The notes beneath the pieces are model-generated. The model was not told where the DNA came from. It saw only the letters and a list, made by a program, of their open reading frames with translations, and ran no database searches. From a virus (Duplodnaviria > Heunggongvirae > Uroviricota > Caudoviricetes), in the IMG/VR virus record IMGVR_UViG_2660238061_000004: 26,702 nucleotides of DNA. One strand, 5' to 3'. The position numbers and the translations under genes were made by a program. Below are positions 1,549 to 7,635 of this stretch, piece after piece. Position 1 is the first letter of the stretch, and every line of letters starts with the position of its first letter.

Positions 1549-2802
1549 TTATTTGTTACGTTTCCAGAATTCGGCGTTGATTTTGTTCAACTCAGCCGGG
1601 GACATTGGGCCGCGGGCGCGGTCGCCAGTTGGTTTGCCTGAAGGCGGGGTGATGCGGTTCTTTGCCTTACTGATCTCGACTGCAGCCTTAAACACCGCAT
1701 CGACAGTGGCCTTCGGCGCTTTGGCGAAGTCGGAAATGCCAAACGCCTTCAGGCTGTCGCCTGTGCGCAGCGCCTGGTTGAGTACCTGACGCTTCAGGCC
1801 TTTGTCGCCGGCAGGCTGGAAGCCCGGGCAGATGATCTCTGCGTCGCCGATGATGTTGCGCTTATAGGCCGCATCGCCGGTTACCTTCGCATCCTCTTTC
1901 GCGTCTTCGTCACCGGTTTTGGTTTCGTCGTCCAGATCAGCATCGCCAGTTTTGCCTTCCAGCTTATCGAGTCGAGCAATCAGAGCCTGCGCCCAGGCGG
2001 GCGCCTCTTCATCACCGGTTTTCTTTTCCGGATCGGTATCTTCATCGACCGTGGTCTTCTGGTCTGCTGGCAGCGCGGTAGCCTGTGAAGGCACGTTCAT
2101 GTTGATGGTTACGCCGGGGATGGAACCCATGCCGTCAGATGGCATGTCCGGCGCTTCATCGATGAGCTTCGTCAGCGCGTCCTCATCTTTCGTCTTAATG
2201 GCCTGAGCCAGTTTTTTCAGCCATGACATTGCAGGCTTCTCCTTTGGTTTTGATGGGGCCGAATCCCCGATTGCACAGCGGGAGCCCGCCCGGCCCTTAT
2301 CAACGATGGCCAGATGGTTTCCTGTGATTTCTGTTTGCTTGCCCTTGCCCGGGCCGATTTGCACGTACTGGGCGTCGTAGCCACAGCTGACCTGGTTTTT
2401 ACCAGCGTTGACCGCATCGATGCCTTCCTGCCGCTTCACCAGCACATCAGCGATCAACAGGTCGGTTTTATCGCCGGTGCCGCGGCGGACGTTCTGGATA
2501 TGGCCATGGGCCAGCTCCGCGAAGTTCGCCGGGTTAACGAAAACGATGTTGCCTTCGCCGTCTTCCGGGTGATCCAGCGTTACCGCCATGCCCTCGAAGC
2601 TCGCCATAGTCTCTGGAGAGAAAACCTCGTCCTCGGTGCGATAGATGACCACCAGCCCATCTGCGCCAGGCTCAAGGCCGATTTCTTCGGGAAGATAGGT
2701 TTGCGTGCCGGTGCGGGCGATCGGGACGTCTTTGCACAGCAGGGAGCCGTCCGCCAGCTGGTAGCGCGTTTCGCCAAGGCGGGTAATGAAGAAGTATTTC
2801 AT
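1549..2802 (-). CDS. head scaffolding / prohead maturation protein (DUF2213-like)
   Basis: 417-aa ORF between the head morphogenesis gene and the capsid-associated gene; long acidic, low-complexity middle (TGDEDAKEDAK...) typical of scaffolds. Confidence 0.5.
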   Translation of the reverse strand: MKYFFITRLGETRYQLADGSLLCKDVPIARTGTQTYLPEEIGLEPGADGLVVIYRTEDEVFSPETMASFEGMAVTLDHPEDGEGNIVFVNPANFAELAHGHIQNVRRGTGDKTDLLIADVLVKRQEGIDAVNAGKNQVSCGYDAQYVQIGPGKGKQTEITGNHLAIVDKGRAGSRCAIGDSAPSKPKEKPAMSWLKKLAQAIKTKDEDALTKLIDEAPDMPSDGMGSIPGVTINMNVPSQATALPADQKTTVDEDTDPEKKTGDEEAPAWAQALIARLDKLEGKTGDADLDDETKTGDEDAKEDAKVTGDAAYKRNIIGDAEIICPGFQPAGDKGLKRQVLNQALRTGDSLKAFGISDFAKAPKATVDAVFKAAVEISKAKNRITPPSGKPTGDRARGPMSPAELNKINAEFWKRNK

Positions 2803-2904
2803 GGGTTACCTGCTGAATTGCGGGCAGTAAAAAGGCCGCGCAGTAGCGGCCACTGGGGTTTATCTAATGCTTTAGCACGAGCTCTTCACCACTAATTTTC
2901 GGCC

Positions 2905-2933
2905 TTGACACTCTAAATTCGATAGTGAAAACA
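2905..2933 (+). promoter_or_regulatory. putative sigma70 promoter for the plus-strand moron
   Basis: Exact TTGACA at 2905..2910; the downstream -10 is poor (AAAACA / TAGTGA region), so this is weak. Confidence 0.25.
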
Positions 2934-2969
2934 TGAACATTGATTCCCACCACCAAAAGGAGTTTTGAA

Positions 2970-3167
2970 ATGAGCACTAAAGCAGAATTGTTAGCGAAGA
3001 TGGATCGCATGGCAGATGAGTGGTCACGCACCACTGGCCTCAACAATGACTATGTTGAGGGCGAGCGTTACACCAAAATCAAAGACCAACTTGCAGCGCT
3101 CGGGGTGAACGCTCGCATTGATGCCGTAGAGGGTAATTCAGCTCAATTCAGGGTTTATGTAGATTGA
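2970..3167 (+). CDS. small hypothetical protein (moron inside the head module, opposite strand)
   Basis: ATG at 2970 preceded by AAAGGAG seven nt upstream; 65 aa (MSTKAELLAKMDRMADEW...); stop TGA 3165..3167; followed by a hairpin plus T-run. Confidence 0.55.
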   Translation: MSTKAELLAKMDRMADEWSRTTGLNNDYVEGERYTKIKDQLAALGVNARIDAVEGNSAQFRVYVD

Positions 3168-3182
3168 GAAAGCCTCCCTCCC

Positions 3183-3210
3183 AGCCATCCTTGTGATGGC
3201 TTTTTTATTT
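3183..3210 (+). terminator. rho-independent terminator after the moron
   Basis: agccatc-cttgt-gatggct stem-loop followed by TTTTT; no T-run on the opposite strand. Confidence 0.5.
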
Positions 3211-3962
3211 CCTGGGATTTGGCACCTGCACTTCCGGCCAGCATTTGCAGTTCGGCAGGCACCCGGCGTGCCCGGTCATACCGTCCAGCGTCGGCGGGTT
3301 ATCCCAGCGCACAAACTTATCTTTCATCCAGCGATGTGAATCGCGCGTTCCGGCCCCTTCGATGCGCCACCAGTAGCCCTCAGAGCCAATCGACTCAGCG
3401 CGCGCCTGGGTGAGCGCTGTCGTGGCCCGGCCGATTTCGGTGCGGGCGATCATCTTCGCGCGGCTCTCTGCCACGTCGCCGGACTCCATAATCATCCGAT
3501 AGAGCGCGTCGGGGCGCTCACCGTTTATGACGGCTTCCATTGCGCGCTCCTGGATGTCACGAACGCGGTCGGCAGCTTCCAGCGGAAGAGATTTAATCAG
3601 CTGCACCTGCGGGATACGATGTCCTGAGCCACGAACCCCACCGGCGTATTGCCGACAACATCCCGCAGCCCCTCAGAGATTTCCTGCGACACAGAGCGCC
3701 ACTGGTTCCACTCCTCCTGCTCAACCTGCAGGAACATGCGTTTGGCTACCCGGTCGGCCCAGTCGTCAATCAGCAGCGAGTAATCTATCAGCCGGGCGCT
3801 AACCTGCTCGGCGCTCGCTTCCGAACCATCGTAGGAGCCAGTTACTATCGCGCCGCACTGACGCGCTATCTCCTGTAGACTTTTCTGATACTGGCGCTCC
3901 GATTTGCGGCGGAGGTTCGGTTTCAGATTCAGCCTCCTCCCATTCTGCTTTGGCATCTTCAA
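3205..3962 (-). pseudogene. phage head morphogenesis protein (Mu F / SPP1 gp7-like) split by a frameshift near 3600
   Basis: Track ORFs 3597..3962 (121 aa) and 3205..3606 (133 aa) are adjacent in different frames and together give a full-length protein; the downstream frame stays open upstream of its first start. May be a sequencing error rather than a true pseudogene. Confidence 0.55.
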
Positions 3963-5277
3963 TATCCTTGTCGGTGATAGAGCCGCCGATACCGATGATG
4001 TCGGACAGGTTGCGCAGGTCGTTCAGCGCGGCATGCTGCGGCATACCGATGTCGCGCACGGCAGTCGCCAGGGCGGTGGCCACGTTGCTGGCCATTGTCG
4101 CCCGGTCAGTGTCCGACATCTCCCAGAGCTTGTTGAACTCGAAGGTGAAGTCTTCCGGCAGGGGCTGTCCGAACAGGGAGCGCCAGGAGATATCCAGCAG
4201 CCAGCGGATGTGTCGGCGCAGGCGGCGCTCCTGCAGCGAGTTAACGCGGCTGTAGTAGTTCTCCAGATCCCCGTCGCCGGTGCTGAATCCGGATGGTGAC
4301 TGCCCGAACAGGCGCACCAGCGGGATCCCAGTTGCGCCGGATACCTGCTCAGCAAAGCGCAGGATGACATCAGCGATCCCGGCGAACGAGTAACTGTGGG
4401 TCTGGAACTCGTCCGACTTATCCATGATGGTCATGCCTTCTATGGTCTGGAACTCACGGATCATGTCCATGTGCTTCATCAGACCATCTTCCAGCGTGCC
4501 GCCAGTGGCCAGAATCTTACGCAATCCGTCAATGCTGTAGGTACGCAGGTGCGCCTTGTGAATCAGCTGTGTAGTGCCGACGGTTGCGGTATCGAACGCC
4601 TGAATGCGCTCGTAGATACGCTCGACTACCGACATTCCCCAGCCGTTCTCGGTCTGCGCCTGCTGGAATGGCAGTGTGTCACCTTCCATGCGGATAATGC
4701 GGCTGTGGTGAATCTTCCACGGGGGGATCCCCTGCTGGTTGGTCACCACCTTGTAGTACTTCGGCTTGCCGAACTCCGGGCCGTAATCGGTCACCAGGTC
4801 GTAATAGCTCGGGGTTACCTGCCAGCGGTCGAGGCACATCACCCCCTTGAACTGACCCTCTTTGATGCGGTCGAGCTTCAGCGGAGTGGACATGTCCTGC
4901 CCTTCCAGCAGCACCACCAGCAGCGCGCCGCCGTACAGCCGGGACCACTTCAGGGTGTCGTTCAGTCCGTCCCAGATGGCAATGTCATCCCAGAACATCT
5001 CAAATTTACCCTTCTGTCCGGGCTCGAGCTTGGAACTGATGTTTATGCCCTTGCGGGTCATATCATCGGCCATAGCGTCTACACCGGCGCCCACCAAAAA
5101 CGATGAACGATACGCAAATTCCAGCTGTACGCGGTTACGCGAGATATAGCCAGGCTGATAGCTCCCACCGCTCTGGATGTTGGATGTATAGCCGCCGAGC
5201 TTAGCCGCGAAGTTGTTGTACCCGTCACCAGTCCGGACGGGCTTTTGTGCGCCGCTCTGGCGTTTCTTTCGGGACAT
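3799..5277 (-). CDS. phage portal protein
   Basis: 492-aa ORF directly after terminase large; ATG 5275..5277 with GAGGGG upstream; acidic C-terminal tail. The 3' end overlaps the next gene by about 160 nt, so the true stop may be earlier. Confidence 0.75.
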   Translation of the reverse strand: MSRKKRQSGAQKPVRTGDGYNNFAAKLGGYTSNIQSGGSYQPGYISRNRVQLEFAYRSSFLVGAGVDAMADDMTRKGINISSKLEPGQKGKFEMFWDDIAIWDGLNDTLKWSRLYGGALLVVLLEGQDMSTPLKLDRIKEGQFKGVMCLDRWQVTPSYYDLVTDYGPEFGKPKYYKVVTNQQGIPPWKIHHSRIIRMEGDTLPFQQAQTENGWGMSVVERIYERIQAFDTATVGTTQLIHKAHLRTYSIDGLRKILATGGTLEDGLMKHMDMIREFQTIEGMTIMDKSDEFQTHSYSFAGIADVILRFAEQVSGATGIPLVRLFGQSPSGFSTGDGDLENYYSRVNSLQERRLRRHIRWLLDISWRSLFGQPLPEDFTFEFNKLWEMSDTDRATMASNVATALATAVRDIGMPQHAALNDLRNLSDIIGIGGSITDKDIEDAKAEWEEAESETEPPPQIGAPVSEKSTGDSASVRRDSNWLLRWFGSERRAG

Positions 5278-5289
5278 ATCCCCTCACTA

Positions 5290-6495
5290 TTATTGTTTGC
5301 CCAGGGCGGCCCAGACACCGAGATCGCCAACGCTTGTGATGTATCCATCCAGCGAGTAGCGCACGGCATCCCACAGGTGGTTATGCTTATCCACGACAAC
5401 CGGCAGCACTTCGCCGGTCATGCGGTCGGTTTTGTAGGAGTAAAGGCGCGCCTCATCGACCATGTGCTTACAGCGCTCATGGATGATGATTTCTTCGAAC
5501 CCTTTCAGGTAGGTAATGCCGTCCTCAACGCTCCCCGGCCATTTGGTAGCGCCGTCGATGATGAAGCCCTGACGCGAAAGATAACTGATGGTCTCCGGCC
5601 GGCTGCAGTCGCCGTGAATGGGCCATTTTCTGGATTCCGGGATGGAGTCATAGAACTGCGCCATTTCGTCCAGCTCGACGCCGACGCCGTAGGCTTCGTA
5701 CTCGATGTACAATCGGGTGCCGATAATGAAGCAACGGACCAGAGTGGATGGGTCGTTGGCGAAACCGAAGTCAGCCCCATAAAACAGGCGATCGGCTTCT
5801 TTCCACAGGTCGTCAGAGAATGCCTCAACCCGGTACTTGCCGGAGAAGATAACGGCCTCACTGAGCGCCTTCGGCAGCCCCAGCCAGATATGCTCGTAAG
5901 CCTCGAAGTCGATACGCTTGCAGTATTCCATCTCGTGCCTGAGCACGTCAGGGAAGAATGCGTTATCGCAGTAGTTGACGCAGGTAATAATCGCTCCGCC
6001 ATCAGGGGGATCGGCGCGGTGCCGCTCCATCATGGCGTAGGTCGGGTCGGTAGCTTCGCGCGGGTTGAACGACACCCACACTTCGGATTTATTGGCGCGA
6101 ACGGTCGGACCGAGGATGTCCCAGCTATCCTGCGATACGGTTTGCGCTTCCTCTACCCAGCATATTTTGATGCCGTGCATCGACTTAATGCTCTGGATGT
6201 TGTTGCGCAGACCTTTGAAGGTAAACCGCGTGCCGTTGCTGCCCTCTATCTCGTTGTTCTTGACCTTGTAGAAGTGCGCCAGGCCAAGCGAGTGGATTTC
6301 AGCGTCCAGCAGTGCCAGTACCGAATCGTTGATAGAGTTCTGGAACTCACGAGCGCACAGGATGATCATTGGCTCGATAGCGCCCAACAATACCAGCGCG
6401 CGGGCAATCTCTACCGATTTGCCGCCACCACGACCGCCATACGTCCAGCGCCAGCGGACAGAGCCTATCGGTGCGTCGTACAGCGTCCCGAGCAC
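5290..6495 (-). CDS. terminase large subunit
   Basis: 401 aa with Walker A GGRGGGKS near the N-terminus and nuclease-like C-terminal half; GTG start without a clear SD, so the start is uncertain. Confidence 0.85.
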
Positions 6496-7374: not shown

Positions 7375-7635
7375 ATGTCAGATGTAGAAAAAAGAATTGC
7401 CCATCTTGAGGATTTGGTTGAAGAGTTACAGTTACACAGCCACGCTTCTCGTGTTGCTATTGCTGTATTATCAACGGCTTTAAACGGAGTTGTGGGGAAA
7501 GAAACTCACCTCGGAGATGTTTATTTAGAAGGGGTTTCTAAGGCCGACCCCATCGAATTCGACATTCCCGCTAAAGATGGATACCTAGAAAAATTAAACG
7601 AGAGAGTCGCTGCTCTACTAGGCAGAGCACAATAA
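7375..7635 (+). CDS. small coiled-coil protein, AT-rich moron in the lambda bor position
   Basis: ATG 7375 with AAAGGAAC upstream; 86 aa (MSDVEKRIAHLEDLVEELQ...) with a hydrophobic stretch VAIAVLSTALNGVV; opposite strand to the flanking late genes; not Bor-like (no lipoprotein signal). Confidence 0.5.
   Translation: MSDVEKRIAHLEDLVEELQLHSHASRVAIAVLSTALNGVVGKETHLGDVYLEGVSKADPIEFDIPAKDGYLEKLNERVAALLGRAQ

Follow-up and report, generated by a model that had tools for sequence, protein, structure and literature searches.

Two questions are raised by positions 2905–3210 of the DNA analysed here: whether a small gene that runs antisense inside the head genes of a prophage belongs to the head at all and, if it does not, what it does there. 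The whole stretch (hereafter the window) comprises 26,702 nucleotides and is the IMG/VR virus record IMGVR_UViG_2660238061_000004. The initial annotation, made from the sequence without database searches, had described the locus as a self-contained moron, with a promoter-like element, a 65-aa gene and a terminator, inserted between a head morphogenesis gene and a scaffold gene. In this study, we believe that 2905–3210 is a one-gene accessory cassette (moron) of a Rac-like prophage that works as proposed below, and we give this reading a probability of about 60%. The most secure part of it is that the cassette is an autonomous accessory element and not a structural one, which we consider highly probable. 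That the 65-aa protein binds a protein of the host or of a rival element, as a defence, counter-defence or exclusion factor, is a tentative proposal.

Genomic setting

The window is a lambdoid E. coli prophage of the Rac-like type. Its products include an integrase, RecE/RecT, a cI-like HTH protein, YdaT, a replication protein similar to O and an antiterminator similar to Q, and it also has lysis genes and the genes of both terminase subunits, TerS and TerL. The head genes are on the minus strand. On the right, the cassette is convergent with the C-terminal part of a Mu F-like minor head gene (3205–3606; PF04233, 1.5e-13), and on its left lies a DUF2213/Pa193_gp24 head gene (1549–2802; PF09979, 2.1e-42), the "scaffold" gene of the initial annotation. 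The genes of TerL (5290–6495) and the portal protein (3799–5277) lie upstream of these two flanking genes, and those of the cement protein (1019–1537) and the major capsid protein (105–1007) lie downstream, all on the minus strand. The gap between the Mu F-like and DUF2213 genes measures 402 nt in the window (2803–3204), and the GC content is 0.45–0.46 over 2800–3100 compared with 0.56–0.64 in the flanks.

The Mu F-like gene of the window has a 1-nt deletion at about 3608–3609, where CACCT-GCGGG stands against CACCTGGCGGG in E. coli Res13-Sevr-PER07-33; the same extra base is implied by the match lengths in the four other cassette-bearing complete genomes. The deletion splits the gene into ORFs at 3597–3962 and 3205–3606, and the Pfam Mu_F domain is still intact within the 133-aa ORF despite the split. 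It is either a sequencing error or the mark of a pseudogenised, defective prophage. Elsewhere in the window, a lone ORF of 86 aa (7375–7635, plus strand) stands antisense in the interval from the small terminase gene to the lysis genes; it matches phrog_16546, a group without an assigned function, at E = 4.9e-36. The scan gave no plus-strand terminator directly 3′ of it, and it may be a second moron. In some genomes, including BL21, PGAP gives the name "anti-CBASS protein Acb1 family protein" to a DUF1073-type portal homologue, which looks like an annotation-transfer artefact.

Anatomy of the cassette

The cassette begins exactly at 2905 with a consensus −35 hexamer, TTGACA (2905–2910), followed by TG-a-AAACAT (2926–2934), in which A−11 and T−7 are present. 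The spacing between −35 and −10 is 18 nt, and the window contains the whole pattern TTGACA-N15-TGaAAACAT (2905–2934) a single time, where chance would give 0.03 matches. A generic sigma-70 promoter scan of the window did not call this promoter, because the −10 hexamer AAACAT matches the consensus at 3/6 positions. Since the two critical bases, A−11 and T−7, and the upstream TG accompany this hexamer, we read it as an extended −10 element. A Shine–Dalgarno sequence, AAGGAG (2957–2962), stands 7 nt before the ATG of the 65-aa gene (2970–3167; ATG at 2970, TGA at 3165–3167). The promoter-like element and the antisense gene with a strong Shine–Dalgarno sequence that had been claimed were thus both recovered, and all these elements are on the plus strand.

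The intrinsic terminator of the cassette (3183–3210, plus strand) consists of a stem-loop at 3183–3201, AGCCATC-CTTGT-GATGGCT, and a T tract at 3202–3210, TTTTTATTT. The 7-bp stem contains 4 GC pairs, and the folding energy is −10.7 kcal/mol (z = −2.5). Positions 3205–3207 are the complement of the Mu F-like TAA stop codon, so the overlap with that gene is confined to the T tract and does not extend to the stem. The claim that the cassette has a terminator of its own therefore stands, and the claim that this terminator overlaps the 3′ end of the Mu F-like gene is correct for the T tract and stop codon and incorrect for the stem. On the 5′ side, directly before the promoter, there is a partly conserved box (TCTTCACCACT...; 2885–2904, plus strand) with 11/20 positions invariant in five lineages, compared with 5/33 in the stretch that precedes it; an UP-like element or a regulator site are candidate roles for this box.

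Conservation and selection

The first 8 kb of the window hold 59 ORFs of at least 40 aa, so the 65-aa ORF by itself is not beyond chance. It is the comparative evidence that raises it above chance. A word-indexed search of 5.8 billion proteins gave 7 clusters at 71–100% identity, every one exactly 65 aa long, and close homologues are on record from Enterobacter and Kluyvera as well. Among five diverged prophage lineages, whose homologues are all 65 aa long, the pairwise dN/dS of the gene was 0.07–0.20. Differences were concentrated at third codon positions (17/6/30 by codon position in one example pair), and none of the other five reading frames was open in any of the five loci tested. We conclude from these sequence comparisons that the 65-aa ORF is a real, conserved gene under purifying selection.

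The signals around the gene were evaluated by phylogenetic footprinting, that is, by counting the positions that are invariant across the five independent lineages. The −35 hexamer was invariant at 6/6 positions and the extended −10 element at 9/9, so that 15/15 positions of both promoter boxes were unchanged, compared with approximately 20% at neighbouring non-coding and third-codon positions. The corresponding counts were 6/15 in the spacer, the length of which is constant at 15 nt, 4/21 in the 5′UTR, 5/33 in the region 2852–2884, 15/65 at the third codon positions of the ORF, and 0/15 between the stop codon and the terminator stem. The Shine–Dalgarno sequence was AAAGGAG in 5/6 aligned loci and AAAAGGG in the remaining one (L011). 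The terminator stem was kept in all lineages: its closing pair varies in a compensatory manner among A-U, G·U and G-C, and in one lineage the stem gains a base pair. The footprinting and the conservation of the stem indicate selection on each of the four parts, namely the promoter, the ribosome-binding site, the ORF and the terminator.

The slot and the orientation are constant as well. In 8/8 loci from the five lineages, the order is Mu F-like gene (minus), 65-aa gene (plus) and DUF2213 gene (minus); a sense-oriented copy within the structural operon was never seen, in agreement with the initial annotation.

A junction with exchangeable cargo

The cassette is rare. Of 5,426 complete E. coli genomes, only 5 have the 461-nt region at ≥99.8% identity; in these, PGAP labels the 65-aa ORF as a hypothetical protein (WP_053271619.1), and identical copies of the cassette are carried by three IMG/VR contigs. 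No match was obtained in the phage collection by DNA or by protein, in the plasmid collection by protein search, or in the set with one genome per species. The head module itself is present in at least 476 of the 5,426 complete E. coli genomes. Presence or absence among related prophages had been proposed as a check of the moron hypothesis, and its outcome favours that hypothesis: most prophages with the head module lack the cassette, and some have other cargo at the junction.

Judging from the compared sequences, the Mu F-like/DUF2213 junction is a cargo hotspot, for which E. coli prophages show five or more alternative states. The two flanking genes may simply be adjacent, with a gap of 14 nt (L006) or 51 nt (L004). 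They may be separated by a same-strand 140-aa gene without a family assignment (L003, L005 and L022; 44 complete E. coli genomes), by a 261-nt AT-rich stretch without an ORF (L002 and L024; 7 genomes), by a 110-nt tRNA-like gene (L023; 2 genomes), or by the antisense 65-aa cassette, as in the window (5 genomes). L004 keeps half of a terminator of the L003 type, which suggests that its cargo was deleted.

Two of the other states deserve a description of their own. The 110-nt tRNA-like gene of L023 (1678–1787; E. coli LHM10-1, also found in CP52E) is on the structural strand and has its own terminator. PGAP calls it "tRNA-OTHER"; with the Rfam tRNA model it reaches 31 bits, the gathering threshold being 29. 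ARAGORN gave no call, and the additional nucleotides suggest that the gene has an insertion or a long extra arm. The 261-nt AT-rich insert of L002 (2800–3030; E. coli 25-06685) and L024 has no ORF and no Rfam match, and could represent a decayed remnant of cargo or encode a small RNA. An RNA gene was also considered for the cassette and rejected, as Rfam gave nothing above noise within it.

The left boundary of the variable junction is an intrinsic terminator on the structural strand (2851–2834, minus strand; GGCCGCTACTGCGCGGCC followed by TTTTT), just upstream of the DUF2213 leader, with 6 GC pairs in the stem and a folding energy of −13.0 kcal/mol (z = −2.6). A terminator is found at the equivalent spot in L002, L003/L005 and L023. 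Because it is present whatever the cargo, we assign it to the backbone of the junction and not to the 65-aa gene. The stem sequences of the terminators that precede the leader differ among these relatives, that of L023 included, and L004 has the 3′ half of the hairpin only. The 24-nt DUF2213 leader itself (2803–2826; minus strand TGCCCGCAATTCAGCAGGTAACCC, then ATG) is invariant at 23/24 positions in the five lineages, and it is nearly unchanged in relatives with wholly different cargo (L002, L003, L004 and L023). Such conservation exceeds what a ribosome-binding site needs, and the leader may be a site of translational control or RNA processing.

How long the cassette has been at this junction can be estimated from its divergence. 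The identity of the 65-aa protein to the window copy was 92% in L012, 83% in L011 and 71% in L007, and that of the flanking head proteins was 89–97%, 81–97% and 60–82%, respectively. The cassette is no recent insertion, since it has diverged in step with the flanking head genes to approximately 71% amino-acid identity. No convincing direct or inverted repeats of the kind left at a transposon or integrase site were found to flank it. The long co-divergence with the head module could hint at a link to that module. However, the head genes of L002 are comparably diverged, yet it lacks the cassette and has unrelated DNA in its place.

The 65-aa protein and its distant relatives

The 65-aa protein has, as read from its sequence, no signal peptide, no hydrophobic segment and a net charge of about −2. 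The AF2 model (pLDDT 83.6) shows two helices and a beta-hairpin, in the order helix–helix–beta-hairpin. Membrane, signal or enzyme signatures are absent from it; profiles of Pfam, PHROGs, PADLOC and NCBIfam gave no match, and comparison with solved structures and viral predicted structures gave no similarity and no informative fold match. These predictions point to a small, soluble, mildly acidic cytoplasmic protein. No description of the gene turned up in the literature, which was searched by accession as well as by topic.

When 1.84 billion representative proteins were searched exhaustively with a profile, a rare family of 12 proteins emerged at E ≤ 1e-3. The members are mostly 64–74 aa long and have L7, A15, W18, L41 and I50 in common, together with a conserved loop L-(S/N)-N-D-Y-x-E-G-x-R-Y. 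The family is thus undescribed in the libraries and papers searched, and it is carried by mobile elements. One distant member (L013) lies between a type I R-M/Phd antitoxin region and the gene of a TraG coupling protein, in a conjugative or mobilisable element. Others are directly 3′ of a Gp49-HTH_37 toxin–antitoxin pair on a phage-like contig (L015/L016), adjoin ParE and CcdAB modules in Janthinobacterium (L018), or stand next to an nSTAND3-Mrr gene in an accessory island that belongs to a P2-like prophage of Marinomonas (L017). In the last case, the family gene has terminators on both sides and a GC content of 0.33 against 0.44 in the flanks. Because the distant members occur in cargo regions of other mobile elements, we believe that the 65-aa protein is not a head protein.

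One member of the family, P0016, carries a fused domain of 158 aa, free-standing homologues of which follow a HEPN/RES-NTD1 protein. Within an HK97-like head module on the metagenome contig L027 (SRR28386231_36662), such a pair, a 273-aa HEPN/RES-NTD1 protein and a 158-aa protein without a family assignment (3150–4477), lies antisense between the genes of a Mu F-like protein and an S78 prohead protease. The two genes look like a conflict-type pair, so far undescribed, in the same slot. In Methylobacterium (L026), the same pair adjoins a PIN_10 gene. The fusion comes from a single protein on two short contigs from related samples. As a lead it is thin, but it too points to cargo of the conflict type and to an antisense slot that recurs behind the Mu F-like gene. 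Neither the C-terminal domain of P0016 nor that of P0017 could be assigned through Pfam, PADLOC or the PDB. We do not claim homology of the family to HEPN/RES-NTD1: hhalign gave E = 0.064–0.27 at a probability below 1%, and no member matches PF18870.

Nature and possible function of the cassette

Insertion between head genes, a promoter, a terminator and a deviating base composition, the features of a moron that can be judged from a sequence, were all found at 2905–3210, the promoter at the sequence level only. The moron reading is therefore well grounded in the cassette's own signals, its lower GC content and the adjacency of the flanking genes in L006 and L004. For the protein, we proposed a role in conflict because its family is confined to cargo islands of mobile elements.

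A narrower version would make the cassette a dedicated anti-defence gene, like the anti-CRISPR loci of Pseudomonas Mu-like phages, switched on by its own promoter immediately on infection and not for the benefit of the lysogen. By analogy, this is conceivable and in our opinion unlikely. The cassette encodes a small protein under its own promoter and occupies a low-GC island at the corresponding junction between head genes, and distant family members adjoin R-M, other defence or toxin–antitoxin genes. In Pseudomonas Mu-like phages, the variable region of the head cluster, RGP G, coincides with a GC valley and holds anti-CRISPR genes (PMC4378225). However, the acr–aca arrangement was not found here: the cassette is a single ORF between terminators, no aca-type HTH regulator gene is adjacent, and no HTH family matches. 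Unlike the Pseudomonas loci, the cassette is antisense to the head genes, the protein has no similarity to solved or viral predicted structures, and no target system is identifiable.

A role in head assembly, in which the protein acts on the Mu F-like, portal or scaffold proteins as a chaperone or regulator and its gene stands on the other strand by happenstance, would account for the constant junction and for the parallel divergence of the gene and its flanks (92% against 89–97%, 83% against 81–97%, and 71% against 60–82%). We regard it as improbable, since L002 does without the cassette at comparable divergence of the head genes, and since only 5 of at least 476 module-bearing E. coli genomes carry the gene, always antisense, while most of the others lack it and some have other cargo at the same site. 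The lower GC content and the separate promoter and terminator point to independent regulation, and the distant homologues lie in a conjugative or mobilisable element and in tail-region or toxin–antitoxin contexts. The original judgement that the gene is unlikely to be structural thus finds support both in the many prophages that have the head module without the cassette and in the non-head contexts of its relatives.

Hardly probable either is an orphan antitoxin-like or toxin-like component of a toxin–antitoxin or abortive-infection module. The protein has the size of a typical antitoxin, distant members stand beside Gp49/HTH_37, ParE, CcdAB and Phd genes, and one member is fused to a domain that pairs elsewhere with HEPN/RES-NTD1 proteins. 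A type II module consists of two adjacent co-transcribed genes, whereas the window and all 8 close loci have a lone gene with its own promoter and terminator; the toxin–antitoxin pairs that neighbour the distant members are already complete, and the protein matches no known toxin or antitoxin family. The least probable explanation is that convergent or antisense transcription from the cassette is itself the function, either by damping the Mu F-like and portal genes where their expression is leaky or by insulating the head genes in the lysogen, with the peptide as a secondary product: the gene is convergent with the Mu F-like gene, the T tract shares bases with its stop codon and outward-facing terminators bracket the junction, but the amino-acid sequence is under strong purifying selection, a conserved, competent terminator ends the transcript before it is antisense to any gene, and the family also occurs in other, non-convergent contexts.

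Proposed mechanism and significance

If 2905–3210 is an accessory cassette of the prophage, as we prefer to believe, host sigma-70 RNA polymerase would transcribe it independently of Q and the late operon. The cassette runs in the same direction as the genes of the cI-like repressor, RecE/RecT and the integrase, and would therefore be expressible in the lysogen; its product may also be made early in infection. The terminator of the cassette would block antisense read-through into the Mu F-like and portal genes, and the minus-strand terminator at 2851–2834 would shield the DUF2213 and capsid genes from stray transcription. During lytic growth, Q-antiterminated late transcription would pass both terminators and would probably occlude the cassette promoter. 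The weak −10 hexamer (3/6) and the 18-nt spacing of this predicted promoter weigh against our reading.

A bolder hypothesis, which we rate as unlikely, is that the undescribed family, with its L-S-N-D-Y-S-E-G-x-R-Y loop between the two helices, is a stand-alone inhibitor or adaptor of conflict systems, either as a new protein of anti-defence or by modulating effectors of the HEPN/RES type, and that the junction of the Mu F-like gene with the scaffold or protease gene is a general hotspot for antisense conflict cargo in unrelated head modules (E217/Pa193-like here and HK97-like in L027).

The cassette is a clean and well-delimited example of a moron, each part of which is backed by phylogenetic footprinting, and the junction offers a natural cargo slot that can be searched for genes of defence or anti-defence. 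If the protein inhibits or triggers an immune system, a new small effector is added; if it has no immune role, it is one more prophage gene without an assigned function. Morons are already known as a type of feature, and current views of phage genome organisation are not challenged by this one. We believe that its chief value is as a candidate small effector and as the marker of a cargo hotspot.

Comparison with known systems

Morons were defined in phages HK97 and HK022 (Juhala et al. 2000; Hendrix et al. 2000), as restated in PMC4378225. Many morons, though not all of them, are expressed while the prophage is repressed. The cassette resembles the lambdoid morons in being a single gene with its own promoter and factor-independent terminator, placed between late genes that are adjacent in relatives, and in having a base composition unlike that of its neighbours. 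The cassette differs in being older than a recent acquisition, as it has co-diverged with its flanks to approximately 71% identity. The HK97 protein gp15 is reportedly a superinfection-exclusion moron (Cumby et al. 2012). It is encoded in the sense orientation and is a membrane protein, in contrast to the cassette, which is antisense to the late operon and has a soluble, unrelated product.

The anti-CRISPR loci of Pseudomonas Mu-like phages are reported to lie between the Mu G-like gene and the protease/scaffold gene (Bondy-Denomy et al. 2013). They are sense-oriented and usually comprise several genes, the last of which is an aca HTH regulator, whereas the cassette is one antisense gene without a regulator or a known target. 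Both are variable low-GC islands for small genes with their own promoter, situated between the minor head genes and the protease/scaffold gene, and both hold non-structural cargo.

The bor gene of phage lambda is reported to be expressed in the lysogen from the complementary strand within the late region (Barondess and Beckwith 1990). Bor is a lipoprotein whose gene lies beside the lysis genes, whereas the 65-aa protein has no signal peptide or lipobox and its gene lies inside the head cluster; the two proteins have no sequence similarity. In its organisation, bor is nevertheless a parallel to the cassette, as a small accessory gene that runs against the late operon from its own promoter and is dispensable for lytic growth.
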